Origin: Clostridia bacterium
GTDB taxonomy: Bacteria > Bacillota > Clostridia > Christensenellales > CAG-1252
Assembly: GCA_017455605.1 (NCBI GenBank)
Contig: JAFSZO010000072.1
Span: forward strand, 1 to 42,642
Length of the DNA: 42,642 bases
Reading direction: 5' to 3'
The position numbers were made by a program, and so were the translations under genes. Below the pieces are notes generated by a model. The model was not told the origin of the DNA and made no database searches. It saw only the letters and a list, made by a program, of their open reading frames with translations. Of this stretch, positions 317-30,348 are shown in pieces. The number at the start of each line of letters is the position of its first letter. Position 1 is the first letter of the stretch.

Positions 317-1501
317 ATGACCGACCGCACGATCTATCTCGATCACGCCGCGACCACGCCGACGGACGAAAAGGTGCTTCGGGAGATGCTCCCGTACTTT
401 TCGGATGCGTATGGCAACGCGAGCAGTCTGCATCGGGTAGGTCGCAGGGCGATCGCTGCGGTTGACGCGGCGCGGGAAAAGGTCGCTCAGGCGATCGGCG
501 CCCTTCCGTCGGAGATCTATTTCACGTCCTGCGGCACCGAGTCGGATAACTGGGCGATCGCGGGCGTGGCGGAAGCCTACGCGGACAAGGGCAGGCACAT
601 CCTCTCCTCCTCCGTCGAGCATCCCGCCGTGATGCGCTCCCTCGCTCGTCTCGAAGCGCGCGGCTACGAGGTCACCTATCTGCCCGTAGACCGCAGCGGA
701 GCCGTTTCCGTCGAGGCGGCGGTCGCCGCGATGCGCTCGGACACCGTCCTCGTCACGATCATGACGGCGAACAACGAGGTCGGTTCGATCCAGCCTGTCG
801 CCGAGATCTTCGCGGCGGCGCGCGCTCGCGGCATCGTGACGCACACCGACGCGGTCCAAGCGATCGGCTCGATCCCTGTGAACGTAGGGGAACTGAACGC
901 GGACCTTTTGTCCCTTTCGGCGCATAAGTTTTACGGTCCCAAGGGCGTCGGCGCCCTCTACCTCCGCAAGGGGGTCAGGATCAAGGGGCTGCTCCTCGGC
1001 GGCGAGCAGGAGAGGTCGCTTCGCGGCGGCACCTACAACACCCCCGCCATCGTCGGACTGGGCGCCGCCATCGAGGCTGCGACCGCGTCGCAAGGGGAGA
1101 ACGCCCGTCACCTCGCTTCTCTGAAGGAGCGTTTCGTCGCGGCTCTTCGCGAGATCCCGTTCACTTCGTTGAACGGCGGCTCGCCCTCCCTCCCGGGTAC
1201 GGTCAACGTGACCTTTTCGGGCGTGCGCAACAGTGAACTGCTCTTTGCCCTCGATCTCGAAGGGATCGCGGCGTCCTCGGGCAGCGCTTGCTCGTCGGGG
1301 AGCGTCGAACCTTCCCACGTGCTCACGGCAATGGGACTGACCAAGGAGGAGGTCGGTTCTTCCGTTCGCTTCTCGTTCGGCAGGGAGAACACGGAGGAGG
1401 TGGTGGATCGCACCGTCGCCGCGTTGAAGGATATCCTCGCGAGGCTTCGCGCGGATCGGGACCTATTTTTACAAAAGAAGAACGATCGCAAGGACGTATA
1501 A
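317..1501 (+). CDS. iscS: Cysteine desulfurase (IscS/NifS family)
   Basis: IYLDHAATTP, SAHKFYGPKG (PLP lysine), SSGSACSS (catalytic Cys). Confidence 0.92.
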   Translation: MTDRTIYLDHAATTPTDEKVLREMLPYFSDAYGNASSLHRVGRRAIAAVDAAREKVAQAIGALPSEIYFTSCGTESDNWAIAGVAEAYADKGRHILSSSVEHPAVMRSLARLEARGYEVTYLPVDRSGAVSVEAAVAAMRSDTVLVTIMTANNEVGSIQPVAEIFAAARARGIVTHTDAVQAIGSIPVNVGELNADLLSLSAHKFYGPKGVGALYLRKGVRIKGLLLGGEQERSLRGGTYNTPAIVGLGAAIEAATASQGENARHLASLKERFVAALREIPFTSLNGGSPSLPGTVNVTFSGVRNSELLFALDLEGIAASSGSACSSGSVEPSHVLTAMGLTKEEVGSSVRFSFGRENTEEVVDRTVAALKDILARLRADRDLFLQKKNDRKDV

Positions 1502-1556
1502 CGGGACCTCCCGATTGTTTTTACAGGACGGGCTCGCCCCGCCAATTGAGGAAAAA

Positions 1557-3755
1557 ATGGATCTGTCATCGTTGAACAAAGAACAACTCGAAGCGGTGCA
1601 AGCCACCGAAGGCGCTGTGCTCGTCCTCGCGGGAGCGGGGAGCGGCAAGACGCGCGTTTTGACCTATCGCATCGCCTACCTTATCAAGGAAAAAGAGGTG
1701 AATCCCTATCGCATCCTCGCGATCACCTTCACGAACAAGGCGACCAACGAGATGAAGGAGCATCTGACGAATATGCTCGGCGAAGGTTCGGGGGTGTGGG
1801 TCTCCACCTTCCACTCGCTTTGCGCCCGCATTCTGCGTTACGACGCCGAAAAGCTCGGCTACGACAAGAATTACACGATCTACTCCGACGCGGACAGCGA
1901 ACGGGTCATCAAGAGGATCGTGCAGAACAAGCACATCCAAAAGGAAGGGTTCGAGAGCAAGGTCGCCTATCACATCGGCAACGCCAAGACTTATCTCTTT
2001 TCGCCTGAGGAATATCGCAAGGAATGCGGCGACCGCGACGCGATGCTGATCTGCGACGTCTACGAGGCGTACGAGGAGGAGCTCCGTGCCGCCAACGCGA
2101 TGGACTACGACGATCTGCTCATCAAGACCTACGAGCTCTTCACCGAGTTCCCCGACGTGCTGAAGAAGTACGCCGACCGATTCCGTTACATACACATCGA
2201 CGAGTATCAGGACACCAGTCGCCTGCAGTACAAGATCGCGGCGATGCTCTCCTCGGTGCACGGCAACCTCTTCGTCGTGGGTGACGAGGATCAGAGCATC
2301 TACGGTTGGCGCGGCGCGGACATCTCGAACATCCTCGACTTCCGCAAGGATTTTCCCGACGCAAAGGTCATCAAGCTTGAGCAGAATTACCGCAGCACGA
2401 CCAACATTCTGAACGCGGCGAACGCCGTGATCTCGCATAACAGCGAACGCTTTGAGAAAAAGCTCTGGTCGGAAGGGGACAAGGGCGTGCGCGTCGAGAC
2501 CTATTCGGCGCAGGATGACAGGGAAGAGGCGGAGTTCGTCGCCCGTCAGATCTCCAATATGATCCGCGAGCGCAGGATGTCTCCTTCGGACTTCGCGATC
2601 CTCGTGCGCCTCAACGCCTTGACCAAAAAGATCGAGGAAAAGCTCCGCTACTTCCGCATCCCGTACAAGATGTATGGCGGGTTCAAGTTTTACGAGCGCA
2701 AGGAGGTCAAGAGCTTGCTCGCCTACTTCCGCGCCCTCGTGAACCCGCGCGACAACGACGCTTTCCTGCGCATCATCAATACGCCCAAGCGCGGCATCGG
2801 CGACAGCGTGACGGACGAGCTCTCCCTCCTCGCTTCGGAGCGGGGCGTTTCGGTCTCCGACGTGCTGTTCGGCGATCCCATCGCTCTCGGGCTGTCGGAG
2901 AAAAGCGCGAAGAAACTCCGCGTGTTCAAGGAGCTTTTCGACAAACTCGCCGCCGCGCGTGGCGAAAAGGGGCTCGCGGACTTCGCCGAATACGTCGCCT
3001 CCGAGGCGGGATTCTTCCTCGCCTATTCGGGGGACAAAGAGGAGGATCTCAGCCACCGCGAGAACCTCAATCAGCTGATCGGCGAGATCGCGGAGTTCGA
3101 GAAGGCGAACCAAGGCGCGACCCTCGAGGAGTACCTGCAATCCGTCGCCCTGATCTCGGATACCGACGAGATCCAAACCGACGAATACGTGACGGTCTCC
3201 ACCGTTCACTCGGTCAAGGGGCTGGAGTTCAACGTCGTCTTCGTGACGGGGCTGGAGGAGAACGTCTTCCCCTCGCAGTCCTACGGCAAATCCTCCTCCG
3301 AGATCGAGGAAGAGCGCCGCGTGATGTACGTCGCGATGACCCGCGCGAAGCGCCGCCTTTACCTGACCTCGGCGCGCTCCCGCTTTATGTACGGCAGGAC
3401 CAACTACAACGCCCGCAGCCGCTTCCTGAACGAGGCGGACGAGGCGATCAGTCCGAAGCAACGGATCGGCGCATCCGCCCCCAAGCCTCTCGTGCAGTCT
3501 TCGCCCAAGATCGGCTATTCCGCTCCCGAGCAGCCTAAGCGCAGCGAGGAAGAGTACCGCCGCAGCTTCGGCGTCGGCGCAAAGACGGCGGGGAACAAGG
3601 GCGCGCATGACTTTAAACTCGGCGACAAGGTCCTCCATCCGCGTTACGGCGTGGGCAGGATCATACAGATCACGGGCGACAACGCCTCCATCGCGTTCGA
3701 CGGGCTCGGGATCAAGCAGTTCAATATGAAGATCGCACCCTTCAAGAAGGCATAG
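1557..3755 (+). CDS. pcrA: ATP-dependent DNA helicase PcrA/UvrD
   Basis: LAGAGSGKT, DEYQD, VGDEDQSIYGWRGA, HSVKGLEF, EEERR..YVAMTRA and C-terminal tudor-like HPRYGVG; start moved to ATG 1557 after GAGG. Confidence 0.95.
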   Translation: MDLSSLNKEQLEAVQATEGAVLVLAGAGSGKTRVLTYRIAYLIKEKEVNPYRILAITFTNKATNEMKEHLTNMLGEGSGVWVSTFHSLCARILRYDAEKLGYDKNYTIYSDADSERVIKRIVQNKHIQKEGFESKVAYHIGNAKTYLFSPEEYRKECGDRDAMLICDVYEAYEEELRAANAMDYDDLLIKTYELFTEFPDVLKKYADRFRYIHIDEYQDTSRLQYKIAAMLSSVHGNLFVVGDEDQSIYGWRGADISNILDFRKDFPDAKVIKLEQNYRSTTNILNAANAVISHNSERFEKKLWSEGDKGVRVETYSAQDDREEAEFVARQISNMIRERRMSPSDFAILVRLNALTKKIEEKLRYFRIPYKMYGGFKFYERKEVKSLLAYFRALVNPRDNDAFLRIINTPKRGIGDSVTDELSLLASERGVSVSDVLFGDPIALGLSEKSAKKLRVFKELFDKLAAARGEKGLADFAEYVASEAGFFLAYSGDKEEDLSHRENLNQLIGEIAEFEKANQGATLEEYLQSVALISDTDEIQTDEYVTVSTVHSVKGLEFNVVFVTGLEENVFPSQSYGKSSSEIEEERRVMYVAMTRAKRRLYLTSARSRFMYGRTNYNARSRFLNEADEAISPKQRIGASAPKPLVQSSPKIGYSAPEQPKRSEEEYRRSFGVGAKTAGNKGAHDFKLGDKVLHPRYGVGRIIQITGDNASIAFDGLGIKQFNMKIAPFKKA

Positions 3756-3765
3756 GGAGGTTACT

Positions 3766-5694
3766 ATGGGCAGAATGGAAGAGCTTGTCGAGCTCCTCAA
3801 TCGTTACGCACGCGAGTATTACGAGCAGGATAATCCCACCGTTTCGGACGCCGAGTACGACGCCCTTTACGACGAGCTCGTGATGCTGGAACGCTTCGGC
3901 GGGCTGGTCCTCCCCGATTCTCCCACGAGGCGGGTCGGCGGTCGCCCGAACGAAGGATTCCGTCAGGTCAAGCACAAGGAACGCCTCTACAGCCTCGACA
4001 AGACCAAGACGGTGGAGGGCGCGTTGGAGTGGATCGACAAGATCGGCGCTCCCCCTTTGACTCTCGAATATAAGTACGACGGATTGACCCTCAACCTCAG
4101 TTACGAGGGCGGCGTTCTCGTCCGCGCCTGTACGCGCGGCGACGGCGAGGTCGGCGAGGAGGTCACCGAACAAGTCAAGACCATCGCGAACGTGCCGCAG
4201 ACGATTCCCTTTAAGGGAGAGATCGACGTATCGGGCGAGGGCATTATGCCCCTTTCTTCGCTCGAAGCCTACAATCGTGACGCCAAGGTACCCCTCAAGA
4301 ACGCGCGCAACGGCGTCGCGGGCGCGATCCGCAACCTCGACGTCTCGGAAACGGCGCGTCGCGGGCTGGCTTTTTATGCTTACAACGTCGGCTATCACAA
4401 GGGGATAGAGTTCGCGTATCAGCACGAAGTGCACGATTTTTTGCGGGAGCAGGGCTTCGACGTCGGATCCTTTTTCGAGGTCGTGACCGATCCCGGCGAG
4501 GTGACGAGACTCCTCGACGAGGCGGCGGCTCGTCGCCCGCATCTGGACTTCCTCATCGATGGCATGGTCTTCAAAGCCGACAGTTTCGATTTACGTGAAA
4601 AGCTCGGATTTACCGAGAAATTTCCTCGTTGGGCTCTTGCCTACAAGTTCAAGGCGGAAGAGATCTCCACCGAGGTCAAAGACGTGCTTTGGCAGGTCTC
4701 CCGCACCGGCAAGCTCAATCCTCTCGCGGTGCTGTCTCCCGTCGATATCGGCGGGGCGACGGTCTCACGCGCCACCCTCTCGAATATCAGCGAGATCCGC
4801 CGCAAGGGCATCCGCATCGGCGACCGCGTTTTCGTGCGTCGTTCCGGCGACGTGATCCCCGAGATCACGGGCGTGGCAGAGGCGGTCGAGGGCGCCCGAG
4901 AGGTGGAGAAGCCGACGGTCTGTCCCGTTTGCGGCAGTCCCGTGATCGAAAAGGGCGTCTTCCTCTATTGTTCCAACAGCGAGAATTGCGCGCCCAAGAT
5001 CATCTCCGCGCTCGAGCATTTTTGCTCCAAGGACGCGATGGACGTGGACGGCTTGTCCGAGAAAACCATCGAACAGTTCTACGAAGAGTTCGGCTTGCGC
5101 AGTCCCGACGAACTTTACTCCCTCAAAAAGGAGGATCTCCTCTCTCTCGAAGGGTTTAAGGAGAAAAAGGCGGAGAATGTCGTCTCCTGCATCGAGAAGT
5201 CCAAGCGCACGACCCTCGCGCGTTTCCTGACCGCGCTCGGCGTCCCGAACGTTGGCAAGAAAGCGGCGAAGGTGCTGGAGCAGACCTTCGGCACGCTGGA
5301 CGCGCTGATGGCGGCGTCGGTGGACGACGTGGCGTCGATCGAGGACTTCGGACTCATCACGGCAAGCTCCGTCGTGGACTTTTTCGCCTCGGAGGAGAAT
5401 CGCGCGCTCATCGAACGTCTCCTCGCCGCGGGTATCACCTTTATACAGGAGGAGCGCACCGAGGGCGTATTCTCGGGTCGCACCGTGGTCATCACGGGGA
5501 CGCTCTCGTCCTACAAGCGTTCTGCCGCGCAGGAGGAGATACGCAAGCGGGGCGGCGCCGTCTCGGACACGGTCAGCAAGGCGGTCGACCTCGTCGTCGT
5601 GGGAGAGGACGCGGGTAGCAAGCTCGAGAAGGCGAAGAAGCTCGGCATCGAGATCATCGACGAAGCCCGCTTCTTGGAGTTGTTGGCGCAGTGA
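3766..5694 (+). CDS. ligA: NAD-dependent DNA ligase
   Basis: KYDG adenylation motif, CPVC..C..C zinc finger, HhH repeats, C-terminal BRCT; GGGAGG RBS. Confidence 0.97.
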   Translation: MGRMEELVELLNRYAREYYEQDNPTVSDAEYDALYDELVMLERFGGLVLPDSPTRRVGGRPNEGFRQVKHKERLYSLDKTKTVEGALEWIDKIGAPPLTLEYKYDGLTLNLSYEGGVLVRACTRGDGEVGEEVTEQVKTIANVPQTIPFKGEIDVSGEGIMPLSSLEAYNRDAKVPLKNARNGVAGAIRNLDVSETARRGLAFYAYNVGYHKGIEFAYQHEVHDFLREQGFDVGSFFEVVTDPGEVTRLLDEAAARRPHLDFLIDGMVFKADSFDLREKLGFTEKFPRWALAYKFKAEEISTEVKDVLWQVSRTGKLNPLAVLSPVDIGGATVSRATLSNISEIRRKGIRIGDRVFVRRSGDVIPEITGVAEAVEGAREVEKPTVCPVCGSPVIEKGVFLYCSNSENCAPKIISALEHFCSKDAMDVDGLSEKTIEQFYEEFGLRSPDELYSLKKEDLLSLEGFKEKKAENVVSCIEKSKRTTLARFLTALGVPNVGKKAAKVLEQTFGTLDALMAASVDDVASIEDFGLITASSVVDFFASEENRALIERLLAAGITFIQEERTEGVFSGRTVVITGTLSSYKRSAAQEEIRKRGGAVSDTVSKAVDLVVVGEDAGSKLEKAKKLGIEIIDEARFLELLAQ

Positions 5695-5800
5695 CCCATC
5701 ACTTGTGCTGTCAGGCACAAACTTCACTGCATAGCAACTTCACTTGCCGTTAGGCAAACTTCACTCGGCGCAAGCAGAACTTCACTGCGACAGCTTCGCC
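5695..5800. repeat. Array of four AACTTCACT 9-mers separated by variable short hairpins
   Basis: AACTTCACT at 5720, 5736, 5757, 5778 plus degenerate CCCATCACT at 5695; spacers TGTGC-N6-GCACA, GC-ATA-GC, TGCC-GTTA-GGCA, CGGC-GCAA-GCAG, GCGA-N5-TCGC. Confidence 0.9.
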
Positions 5801-26682: not shown

Positions 26683-27776
26683 TGTTTGACGACGACAGTT
26701 TTATCACCAGCGCGATCGGCGACAGGCTGGTCGAACGCGACAGAGAAGAGACGGAAGAGGAGATAGAGAACACCCTTCGCCCCAAGACGATGGCGGAATA
26801 CGTCGGACAGGAGAAGGTGAAGGCAAATCTCTCCGTATTCATCCATTCGGCGAAGAAGCGCGGCGAAGCGCTCGACCACGTCCTTTTATACGGTCCGCCG
26901 GGGCTCGGCAAAACCACACTCGCGCACATCGTCGCGAACGAGATGAACGCGCAGATCAAGGTGACCTCCGGTCCCGCGATCGAGAAAGCCGCCGACCTCG
27001 CCGCGATGCTGACCAACCTCTACGACGGCGACGTGCTCTTTATCGACGAGATCCATCGTCTGTCTCACGCGGTCGAGGAGATCCTCTATCCCGCGATGGA
27101 GGACTACGTTTTAGACTTCGTGGTCGGCAAGGGTCCCAGTGCGAAGAGCATTCGCCTCCCCCTGAAAAAGTTTACTTTGATCGGCGCCACGACCCGTGCG
27201 GGTATGCTGACGGCGCCCCTCCGCGACCGTTTCGGCGTGATCTGCCGTTTGGAGATCTACAAGCCCGAGGAGCTCGCCCGCATCGTCACGCGCAGTGCGA
27301 AACTCCTCGACATCGGCATCGAGAGGGAGGCGGCGGTGGAGATCGCTCGCCGTTCCCGCGGCACGCCGCGTATCGCGAATCGACTCTTGAAGCGTGTGCG
27401 CGACTTTTCCGAGTACCGGAATGAGAAGACCGTCACCCTTGCCACGGCGAAGAAGAGCCTCGACCTGCTTGAGATCGACGACCTCGGTCTCGACAACGTC
27501 GACCGTGAGATCTTGCTCACCATCTTGCAGAAACATAACGGAGGCCCGGTTGGTCTCGACACCCTCGCGGCGACCATCGGGGAAGACGCGAATACCATCG
27601 AGGACGTTTACGAGCCGTATTTGATCCAATTGGGATTCATCGCTCGCACCCCGCGGGGCAGGGTCTGTTTGTCCGGTGCGTACAAGCACCTCGGGTTCAA
27701 GGTCCCCCCTTCGAAGGAAGCGATGCTCGAACAACTGGAGAAGACCACTGCGAAGAAGACCGATGAAGACGAGTGA
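26679..27776 (+). CDS. ruvB: Holliday junction branch migration helicase
   Basis: [37 protein letters not shown]; start is GTG 26679 or ATG 26682. Confidence 0.97.
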
Positions 27777-28785
27777 TTTTTATTACGACCTTCCCGAAGA
27801 CAGGATCGCCCAACACCCCGCCGAACCGAGAGATTCCTCTCGGCTTTTGGTCATTGATCGCGCGAGCGGCGCGTGGCAGGACCGCATTTTTCATGACGTC
27901 ATCGAGTATCTCCGCGCAGGCGACGTCCTCGTGGTCAATAACACAAAGGTCATCCCCGCCCGCCTGATCGGGCACCGCAAGGGGTTTACGGGTGAGGTCG
28001 AGTTCCTCCTCCTGAAACGATTGGATTACACCCATTGGCGTGCCATCGTCCGCCCGGGCAAGAAGCTCGGCGTCGGCGCCGAGGTCGTCTTTTCGGACGA
28101 GCTGTCCGCTCGCGTCACAGAGCGTGGCAAAGAGGGCGAACGCGTCGTGGAGTTTCTCTTCGACGGCGTCTTTGAGGATATCCTCGCCAAGGTCGGCGCG
28201 ATGCCGCTCCCTCCATATATCAAGGAGAAACTTGAGGACAGCTCACGGTATCAGACCGTCTACAGCAAGATCGACGGTTCCGCCGCGGCGCCCACCGCGG
28301 GGCTTCACTTCACCCCCGAGCTGCTGGATCGCATTCGCGCGAAAGGCGTTCGCGTGGTCGAGATCCTTCTGCACGTCGGTCTTTCCACCTTCCGTCCCGT
28401 GAAGGTCGAGAACGTCGAAGACCACAAGATGCACGACGAGTATTACGAGATCTCCGAGGAGGCGGCGGCTGAGATCAACGCAGCGAAATCCGAGGGCAGG
28501 CGAGTGATCTCGGTCGGCACGACTTCGGTGCGTACCCTCGAGAGCGCGGCGGACAGGAAAGGACACGTCCTCGCCGGTAGCGGCAATACCGACATCTTCC
28601 TCTATCCCCCTTACGAGTTCAAGATCGTGGATGGGCTCATCACGAACTTCCACCTTCCCGAAAGTACGCTCTTGATGCTCGTTTCCGCCTTTATGGGCAG
28701 GGAGAAGATCCTGGCGGCGTACAAGCACGCGGTGGACTCTGGGTATCGCTTCTTTAGTTTCGGCGATGCGTGTTTTATCGTATAG
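27763..28785 (+). CDS. queA: S-adenosylmethionine:tRNA ribosyltransferase-isomerase
   Basis: [53 protein letters not shown]. Confidence 0.96.
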
Positions 28786-28814
28786 GCGGCGCATGTCTGA
28801 TCGTATAGGCGGCG
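28777..28814 (+). repeat. 15-bp direct repeat duplicating the queA 3' end and stop codon
   Basis: ATCGTATAGGCGGCG at 28777-28791 and 28800-28814. Confidence 0.8.
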
Positions 28815-28984
28815 TCATGCTTTGTTACTGCTTCGGAGCTCGACCTCATCGACCGACAAGGTCGACTTCGCCCGATCTCCTTCGCGAGCCTCGCCTGACT
28901 TGCCTCTCCGATCAGACATTGTCTGCTTCGATCAAGGGGTGGGAAAAACATAGAGGTTGTGAGTCTTGCTTCTTCGACCGTAAC

Positions 28985-29172
28985 TAAGTTCGCCTAACGG
29001 CGAGTGAAGTTTGCGGGTGCAAGTGAAGTTGCCTTCGGCAGAGAAGTTTGCGCCGCATCCGGCGCAAGTTGCGGATGAAAGGCGAACTTAACTTCACTGA
29101 GAGCGAAGCGAGCAACTTCACTATGCAATAACTTCACTTTGCGTGCGGTGCGCGCAAAACTTCACCTGCGCA
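28985..29172. repeat. Two-armed AGTGAAGTT / AACTTCACT hairpin-spacer element
   Basis: AGTGAAGTT at 29003 and 29022, AGAGAAGTT at 29040; AACTTCACT at 29090, 29114, 29130, AACTTCACC at 29158; most spacers are hairpins; TAAGTTCGCC (28985) is complementary to GGCGAACTTA (29081). Confidence 0.9.
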
Positions 29173-29226
29173 AGATCAAAACGATCTCGGTGAATGGAAG
29201 AGTGCTATAAAACAATAAGGAAATAG

Positions 29227-30348
<1,122 letters not shown>

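Follow-up and report, generated by a model that had tools for sequence, protein, structure and literature searches.

The 42,642-nt stretch of Clostridia bacterium DNA analyzed here (contig JAFSZO010000072.1; the window) carries a two-armed element of short constant repeats and small hairpins in the spacer between queA and tgt. Very likely this element is a non-autonomous derivative, lacking the open reading frame (ORF), of a cassette family in a Christensenellales-like family of gut Clostridia, and its 5' arm with hairpin-separated words is what Rfam models as Gut-1; both statements are held jointly. An intact cassette would consist of a 5' arm of three to five words (7 to 9 nt), a gene for a protein of about 117 amino acids (PF05635/TIGR02436) and a 3' arm of reverse-complement words. 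In the queA-tgt copy the gene appears to be deleted between codon 2 and the stop codon, so that the two arms abut. The element is probably the relic of a selfish cassette, the family of which is common in these bacteria. Its layout (Gut-1) and its kind (a cassette of the intervening sequence (IVS) type) are already known. No printed account of the link between Gut-1 and IVS, of word dialects or of gene-less derivatives seems to exist, as judged from literature searches on Gut-1 and on PF05635/TIGR02436/S23p.

Throughout, a "word" is a constant repeat of 7 to 9 nt, an "arm" is an array of words and hairpins, and a "dialect" is a word variant. G000 denotes the draft genome that holds the window (contig C35); other G numbers are related genomes or genomes from a phylum sample, and L numbers are extracted loci.

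A repeated element between queA and tgt

The element (28985-29166) carries three GTGAAGTT-type words followed by four AACTTCAC words, with differing small hairpins and spacers in between (Table 1). It is housed in the 444-nt spacer from queA (27676-28785) to tgt (29230-30348), at 64 nt 5' of the tgt start codon. Allowing at most one mismatch, AGTGAAGTT has 17 matches in the window, where 100 shuffles give 4.8 +/- 2.4 (maximum 12; none of the 100 reaches 17). Eight of these matches are located at 29003-29166 and four at 5720-5786, where a second, solo arm has four exact AACTTCACT words (5720, 5736, 5757 and 5778); a whole-genome search with the Gut-1 model also matches that region (C35:5732-5812, - strand, 29.1 bits). 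The outer end TAAGTTCGCC (28985-28994) is the perfect 10-bp complement of GGCGAACTTA (29081-29090), and the spacer TTGCGTGC-GGT-GCGCGCAA (29139-29157) pairs as well, including one G-T. A first-pass annotation, made from the sequence of the window, had described constant 9-mers and variable hairpins in two complementary arms, the left one bracketed by a 10-bp stem, and every hairpin and word it named is present, as is the stem. Its suggestion of a pseudoknot between a CATC loop and a GATG site finds no support: GATG is part of the start-codon remnant GGATGAAA, and loop and site change independently in a related copy in G009.

Table 1. Parts of the queA-tgt element, the second copy in the window, and arrays elsewhere (window coordinates unless a contig is named)
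Feature	Position	Strand	Basis
Forward words	29003, 29022 exact; 29040 = AGAGAAGTT	+	window word search
Reverse words AACTTCACT (as on +)	29090, 29114, 29130 exact; 29158 = AACTTCACC	-	window word search
Extra overlapping reverse word AACTTAACT	29085	-	window word search
Left outer end: half-word TAAGTT and hairpin CGCC-TAAC-GGCG	28985-29002 (hairpin 28991-29002)	+	sequence
Sense (Gut-1-strand) arm; words 29003-29011, 29022-29030, 29040-29048	29003-29066	+	sequence, Rfam
Sense-arm hairpin TGC-GGGT-GCA	29012-29021	+	sequence
Sense-arm hairpin GCC-TTC-GGC	29031-29039	+	sequence
Sense-arm hairpin TGCGCCG-CATC-CGGCGCA	29049-29066	+	sequence
AGTTGCGGATGAAA: apparent remnant of ribosome-binding site (GAGGA in intact cassettes) and of the first two codons (ATG, AAA) of the four-helix-bundle gene now missing	29067-29080	+	alignment with G012, G005
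GGCGAACTTA: 3' half of 10-bp bracket stem; aligns with GGCAAAT just past the G005 IVP stop	29081-29090	+	sequence, alignment
Antisense arm: four reverse words; spacers 29099-29113, 29123-29129, 29139-29157	29090-29166	+	aligns with G012 and G005 3' arms and G009 copy
Second window copy: solo 3'-type arm directly past ligA stop; head hairpin TGTGC-TGTCAG-GCACA	5695-5795	+	sequence
Other-word G000 arrays of like build (CATTATGTA/CATGATGTA, GTTATAT/GTGATAT, ATGATAT, ATGAATT, ATGATAA)	C103 (~4200-4420), C97:2817-3096, C91:213-362, C48:11723-11907, C110, C72, C90		
Cassette words TGAATTG/CAATTCA	G011:C90		
Cassette words GAAATCC/GGATTTC	G016:C3		
Cassette words GTGATAT/ATATMAC	G019:C16, G011:C79		
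Cassette words GTGAAGT/ACTTCAC	G005:C2		

The G000 draft comprises 1.26 Mb in 125 contigs (58% G+C, about 75% complete, about 85% coding). It holds 92 copies of the exact 9-mer, where about 5 are expected from base composition, and with at most one mismatch there are 50 clusters of at least two words. Same-strand arms of at least three words number 45 (15 with three words, 29 with four and one with five), so that the case of only two loci, which the first-pass annotation had named as telling against its reading, does not apply. None of the 45 overlaps a predicted gene, although this count and the orientations below depend on a simple gene caller that may include spurious ORFs. Three pairs are arranged head-to-head as in the queA-tgt element, and many copies are located at contig ends. 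The downstream neighbour is on the same strand as the arm in 22 cases and on the opposite strand in 17, the upstream neighbour in 9 and 16 cases, respectively; no clear strand bias relative to the flanking genes is seen. The 5 kb between the distant inverted arms C3:8949 and C3:14009 contains housekeeping genes (tilS, CCA/poly(A) polymerase, rmuC) and no transposon. An end-anchored stem of at least 4 bp is formed by 30% of the 67 distinct between-word spacers in G000, against 2.2% after shuffling. Compensatory changes are seen among the copies (TGTGCC/GGCACA, TGTACC/GGTACA and TGCGCC/GGCGCA; ACG.AGT versus GCG.AGC).

For comparison a set of 61 related genomes was used. The three-word pattern occurs in 13 of them, comprising 7 of the 13 members of the genus, two further genera of the family and one genome outside the family, while the reversed-pattern control yields none. 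The word is constant between species and the hairpins differ. Judged by TGT, the nearest named record (96% identity) is a metagenome-assembled genome labelled Christensenella sp. In the 23 relatives where both genes were located, the queA-tgt spacer measures 0 to 451 nt with a median of 55 nt, in agreement with the earlier remark that the 444-nt gap interrupts a usually short junction. Since the array is absent from the queA-tgt loci of 25 relatives, including 10 same-genus spacers, the insertion seems specific to this lineage; its borders could not be placed on the relatives' spacers, which are not alignable.

Gut-1 arms around IVP genes

At the Rfam gathering threshold the window contains only tRNAs. 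Relaxing the threshold brings up Gut-1 (RF01706) on the left arm (28981-29052, + strand), at 31.3 bits (E 2e-4 to 3.5e-4) and over positions 1-77 of the 77 in the model. The Gut-1 consensus reads word-hairpin-word-hairpin-word-hairpin-word with (G)UGAAAU as the word, and cmscan sets three hairpins and four words of the arm in register, with GUGAAGU/GAGAAGU in place of GUGAAAU. In G000 as a whole there are 47 Gut-1 matches at E<=1. One exceeds the cut-off (C97:3021-3096, 51.4 bits) and many of the remaining ones are AACTTCAC arms read on the GTGAAGT strand. At E<=1e-3 the model is found in 22 of the 61 genomes, including 20 of the 27 of family f1 and G045, and in none of the other 32 families sampled. 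Matches over the cut-off are present in 14 of the 61, and in some genomes the matches number over 50.

The original description (Weinberg et al. 2010, Genome Biol 11:R31; PMC2864571) presents Gut-1 as a probable non-coding RNA known "from human gut only" and rates it "RNA? Y, cis-reg n" in Table 1. In the seed alignment (supplement 5 of that paper) GUGAAAU, GUGAUAU and GUUAUAU already stand side by side as words. Neither an IVP link nor the mirror arm appears in its main text or in its supplements other than Additional file 1 and file S3, and the same is true of copy number and host lineage. Our searches of the literature on Gut-1 and on PF05635/TIGR02436/S23p returned no paper that ties Gut-1 to IVP genes or shows word arrays around non-rRNA IVP genes, and no later functional work on Gut-1; a search for the 9-mer gave only unrelated primer matches. 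Gut-1 and the left arm are built alike, each with three small hairpins of variable sequence and a constant word between and on either side of them (UGAAAU/GUGAAAU in Gut-1), and the model aligns with the arm from end to end. The two differ in that the word is GUGAAGU(U) here, with a match below the cut-off, and in that Gut-1 was described as a stand-alone small RNA (sRNA) from unknown human-gut organisms. The first-pass annotation had proposed an uncharacterised mobile structured element. That it is structured, repeated and probably mobile, its words constant and unpaired and its hairpins variable, stands, whereas its layout can no longer be called uncharacterised; the match to a described Rfam motif, which the annotation had foreseen as making the element real but not new, has come about in part, at 31.3 bits. 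Gut-1, previously known only from anonymous human-gut metagenome reads, gains a host lineage and a genetic context as the arms of IVP-encoding cassettes.

Two arms in G011 have between them about 500 nt coding for a four-helix-bundle protein. The cassette protein (about 117 amino acids), which the G012 and G005 cassettes of the queA-tgt copy's own dialect do encode, matches TIGR02436 "four helix bundle protein" at 97 bits and PDB 2rld at E 3e-24 (five chains in the entry), and PF05635 (23S_rRNA_IVP; IVP below) is found in 21 of the 61 genomes. At six loci the arms flank an IVP ORF, each in one dialect: G012:C71, G011:C90, G016:C3, G019:C16, G011:C79 and G005:C2. To look for four-helix-bundle or IVP genes between the arms of other copies had been proposed as a check in the first-pass annotation, and their presence in relatives proved decisive. 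At G012:C71 a terminator comes first, upstream of TAAATTCGCC-TAAT-GGCGA; next are three GTGAAGT words and their hairpins, ATTGAGGAGATCAA-ATG and the IVP ORF, and last TTTTTATCCGCAACT and four ACTTCAC words with hairpins. Other IVP genes have plain tandem heptamers without hairpins (CGGAATG/CATTCCG, GAGTGGA/TCCACTC, TGCAAAA/TTTTGCA and CCAGCCG/CGGCTGG). In several intact cassettes (G000 C97, G021, G016) a promoter-like TTGAAA..TATAAT is seen by eye between the 5' arm and the ORF.

The arrangement was quantified on the 26 IVP loci having both flanks. At 11 of the 26 loci some 7-mer has two or more copies upstream and its reverse complement two or more copies downstream (three or more at 6 of the 26), against 1 of 26 for direct repeats and 4 of 803 and 0 of 803 for background genes of G000. 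Gut-1 (E<=0.01) is found at 9 of 31 IVP loci, upstream and on the same strand in all nine, and in three also downstream on the opposite strand. Over the 61 genomes, 17 have both Gut-1 and IVP, 5 only Gut-1, 4 only IVP and 35 neither. This co-occurrence is only suggestive, as relatives are not independent, and the physical linkage of arms and IVP genes is the stronger evidence. In a distant genome from the phylum the queA-tgt junction itself holds a complete IVP cassette (L170, G106:C38, locus 393-3052), with a PF05635 match of 142 bits, AGCAGGT three times upstream and ACCTGCT three times downstream.

The queA-tgt copy shares with the GTGAAGT-dialect cassettes of G012 and G005 the outer start, the last 5'-arm hairpin and AGTTG(A/C)GGA. 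The latter is the ribosome-binding site in the cassettes, with ATG AAA/AAG next (AGTTGAGGA..ATG begins the IVP ORF). The hairpin (TTGCGCC..GGCGCAA) is conserved in both, with a compensatory change in G012. At the deletion junction AGTTGCGGATGAAA joins directly to GGCGAAC, which aligns with GGCAAAT past the G005 stop, and the 3' arm follows. Given that a stretch like a Shine-Dalgarno sequence and ATG AAA are joined to post-stop sequence, the queA-tgt copy would be an ORF-less derivative. G009 has an ORF-less copy with the same junction at an unrelated locus, beside UPF0210-like and rubrerythrin-like genes (named by eye). The two copies are identical in 135 of 158 columns (85%), whereas the flanks agree in 14 of 57 and 23 of 108, and this alignment sets the left boundary of the element: similarity begins at AAGTTCGCC, matching the start TAAATTCGCCTAATGGCGAGTGAAGT with which the 5' arm of the G012 cassette opens. 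No direct repeat that could be a target-site duplication flanks the element in G000 or G009. ORF-less two-armed units with complementary start and centre also occur in other dialects (AAATCCGTCC/GGACGGATTT, ATATCCGTTCC/GGAACGGATAT and ATATTCGTTCC/GGAACGAATAT). The element resembles a miniature inverted-repeat transposable element (MITE) in being a short, non-coding, inverted-repeat derivative of a gene-bearing element that is multicopy, intergenic and present or absent by site; terminal inverted repeats and internal deletion from a longer element are both evident from the alignments with intact cassettes. It differs from MITEs by the lack of a target-site duplication and by a parent that encodes only a four-helix-bundle protein and no recognisable transposase.

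The behaviour of the family is that of a mobile element, in that it is multicopy and present or absent by site and has crossed family boundaries. At one locus G012 carries a GTGAAGT cassette and G011 a TGAATTG one, while G000 has neither. In a tree of 31 IVP proteins (dialect labels assigned by eye, two truncated proteins left out) the 15 dialect labels need 14 changes, which is the minimum, against a mean of 20.1 for shuffled labels (0 of 200 as low). This shows that the IVP protein and its words travel together, that is, are co-inherited. The GTKATAT clade covers two genera and a second family. The IVPs of L140 (G021) and L162 (G045), from different families, are near-identical and both have the GTTATAT dialect; the G045 copy has an in-frame TAA. 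This pair suggests recent horizontal transfer followed by decay.

The cassettes are similar to the IVSs with an S23p/IVP ORF of Leptospira, Coxiella and other bacteria, in which, according to PMC4990558, a PF05635 ORF lies between stem-forming inverted ends with heptamer direct repeats upstream. ORF-less forms exist in both. For Coxiella the same paper reports RNase III cleavage of the terminal stem, heptamer repeats ahead of the S23p ORF and a pentameric S23p; mobility of IVSs is an old idea that it also mentions. The queA-tgt copy has the stem-forming inverted ends but no PF05635/TIGR02436 ORF of its own, and it is located between protein genes rather than in a 23S rRNA helix, where RNase III processing is known. 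Its words are also separated by hairpins, which confines the complementarity of the arms to the words. In G028 an IVP gene is located inside the large-subunit (LSU) rRNA (Rfam RF02541), preceded by three copies of TAGAGGT and followed by ACTTCTA-type words. Four further IVP genes inside LSU rRNA were found in a 200-genome phylum sample, giving five in total with the word/reverse-word layout. IVS-like cassettes also occur outside rRNA; in one bacterial family they constitute a system of intergenic repeats that is abundant, diversifying and accompanied by gene-less derivatives.

Proposed mechanism and competing explanations

The RNA of the 211-nt region has a predicted folding energy of -79.7 kcal/mol against -64.8 +/- 4.2 for shuffled sequences (z -3.6), and the corresponding DNA fold has a z of -5.3; in neither case is any of 200 shuffles as low. 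In the minimum-energy fold the arms pair through three word-by-word helices, the 10-bp bracket is formed and some side hairpins are kept. The zipping of left and right 9-mers into a rod with side hairpins, as the first-pass annotation had imagined it, is therefore possible in the predicted fold. Neither a sigma-70-like promoter nor an intrinsic terminator was found in 28700-29300, which makes co-transcription with queA and tgt plausible. We propose that the element would be part of the queA-tgt transcript and that its inverted words may pair there, giving a rod with interruptions and side hairpins. Such a rod resembles the terminal stem of rRNA IVSs, a substrate of RNase III, and might be cut here likewise; the fold could make the insertion tolerable and uncouple the queA and tgt mRNAs. 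We give this transcribed-rod mechanism slightly less than an even chance. The word arrays might in addition be recognition sites of an IVP oligomer that intact cassettes provide in trans, an idea that is conceivable but rather unlikely. To the host, the structure of the decayed queA-tgt copy may be of no use. Our preferred reading is that of a decayed passenger, the RNA of which would form an IVS-like rod that is possibly cut by RNase III, and we think it likely that this is the best explanation as a whole.

Several observations weigh against it. The left arm stays below the Gut-1 gathering cut-off of 50 bits. The mixed orientation of the arms (downstream gene on the same strand in 22 cases, on the opposite strand in 17) is not what a strict sense-RNA function predicts. 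In the G000 C97, G021 and G016 cassettes the promoter-like site may place the arm outside the IVP mRNA. No intact GTGAAGT-dialect cassette was found in G000, which is 75% complete. Mobility is read from the distribution of copies, with no target-site duplication and no transposase found, and co-inheritance does not by itself demonstrate binding of words by the protein. Applied to the phylum sample, the exact-7-mer test gives a weak result (two or more inverted copies at 7 of 26 loci, two or more direct ones at 5 of 26); degenerate inverted arrays are visible by eye in 13 hand-picked loci, and generality beyond this order is drawn from that by-eye reading of chosen loci.

The main rival places the function at the DNA level: the arms would be terminal inverted repeats bound as DNA by an IVP oligomer or a transposase, making the element a strict MITE with incidental RNA structure. 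This fits the multicopy, intergenic distribution in both orientations relative to genes, the presence or absence by site among relatives and the same ORF-less unit at unrelated loci in two species. Also, the single-stranded DNA fold departs further from shuffles (z -5.3) than the RNA fold, some cassettes have a promoter-like site between arm and ORF (by eye), and multiple protein-binding words resemble the subterminal repeats of Tn7, Mu and plant transposons. On the other hand, word spacing varies from 16 to 28 nt, and the spacers keep their hairpin potential by compensatory changes, pointing to a single-stranded state. No target-site duplication was seen, no DDE/HUH transposase was found beside the arms at the examined loci, and to our knowledge IVP has no catalytic activity. 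We consider this explanation improbable, yet ahead of the other alternatives. A further rival is a repetitive extragenic palindromic (REP) element or bacterial interspersed mosaic element (BIME), which would be moved by a REP-associated tyrosine transposase (RAYT, an IS200/IS605-like Y1 transposase) acting on single-stranded DNA hairpins. The Y1 family PF01797 was not found in G000, G005, G011, G013 and G016 (the latter 100% complete), each with 35 to 90 pattern matches, and so the HUH/RAYT transposase that the first-pass annotation had wanted sought beside the copies did not turn up in these five array-rich genomes. Though REP/BIME elements share the mosaic, hairpin-rich, intergenic nature and the frequent inverted pairs, a GTAG-type hairpin foot is missing and the constant part is the linker between the hairpins rather than the hairpin itself, which leaves this origin barely credible.

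Rfam files Gut-1 as "Gene; sRNA", and a free-standing, trans-acting sRNA gene with single-stranded words that sponge protein or RNA would agree with the "RNA? Y, cis-reg n" rating in Table 1 of PMC2864571, with the covarying hairpins and with a word/hairpin layout suited to multivalent binding. But dozens of copies per genome on both strands, the lack of a promoter- or terminator-like site at the queA-tgt element, the upstream same-strand position of the arm in nine of nine IVP loci and a downstream mirror arm that an sRNA gene does not need make it very unlikely. A host cis-regulatory tgt leader (an attenuator or a protein-binding 5' untranslated region) specific to queuosine metabolism might be suspected from the distance of 64 nt to the tgt start and from the right arm being on the sense strand. 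With the element absent from the queA-tgt spacers of 25 relatives, 10 of them same-genus spacers, and present beside unrelated genes, such a leader is extremely improbable.

An association with diversity-generating retroelements (DGRs) was also considered and rejected. The cassette protein is homologous to, and of the same fold and family (PF05635) as, the DGR accessory protein Avd (bAvd), as stated in PMC10053308, and one IVP protein has a weak PF22296 bAvd match. In contrast to DGRs, no reverse transcriptase (RVT_1) was found in eight array-rich genomes of the cassette lineage (G000, G005, G011, G013, G016, G022, G024 and G045), including the 100% complete G016, so that the cassettes are not DGRs.

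Beyond the preferred reading of a decayed passenger, a wider hypothesis can be formulated, which we regard as doubtful, more so than the recognition sites alone. S23p/IVP proteins would bind the flanking 7-nt words sequence-specifically, with one word per ring subunit, and protein and word would co-diversify. This would define a class of self-propagating cassettes without a classical transposase, uniting IVSs, Gut-1 and the ORF-less copies. If true, rRNA IVSs, the orphan Gut-1 and ORF-less copies such as that at queA-tgt would be manifestations of one previously unrecognised cassette class. We know of no function assigned to the S23p/IVP four-helix-bundle protein since the 1990s. Each IVP clade now has a candidate cognate word, and as a consequence the role of S23p/IVP and the spread of IVSs become experimentally approachable. 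On the practical side, the repeats break assemblies of metagenome-assembled genomes (many copies are at contig ends) and could be mis-annotated as sRNA genes.

Additional observations

Several of the other-word arrays in G000 adjoin IVP genes (C97:2403-2711, C103:3810-4100 and C40:319-615). No single consensus covering every word dialect was found. At C81:7290-7604 of G000 an IVP gene is flanked by the tandem heptamers (GGAATKC)n and (ATTCCGC)n without hairpin spacers. These heptamers and (CTCCACT)n are dispersed in G000 and joined to AACTTCACT arms, resulting in mosaics of different-dialect arms.

The first 150 nt or so past queA (28786-28945) are single-copy in G000, and a similar stretch is present at the equivalent position in G011, G005 and G006; stretches resembling it are also seen upstream of tgt in G026 and G022. 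No Rfam match was obtained for it at E<=10. It may be a conserved 3' untranslated region or sRNA element. Other repeats at queA-tgt in L035 (G014), L042 (G026) and L045 (G022) consist of tandem AACGCGTAACGCAAACAAGA-type units of about 20 nt, (ACAACTGTRCGCA)n and a duplicated block of about 190 nt, and the junction seems to collect insertions. The L170 contig has a second IVP match 2.5 kb onward.

A ZMP/ZTP riboswitch (55.6 bits, L005 2737-2816) is located near the ORF-less copy of G009 and is unrelated to the element. In L174 (G169) and L172 (G191) IVP cassettes are positioned between upp-like and dCMP-deaminase-like genes (named by eye). Within the fetched stretches tRNA genes occur within a few hundred bases of the IVP cassette at 8 of 31 loci (L144, L151, L156, L157, L158, L161, L163 and L167), and several ORF-less units begin directly past a tRNA or terminator. 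This proximity may reflect a target preference.

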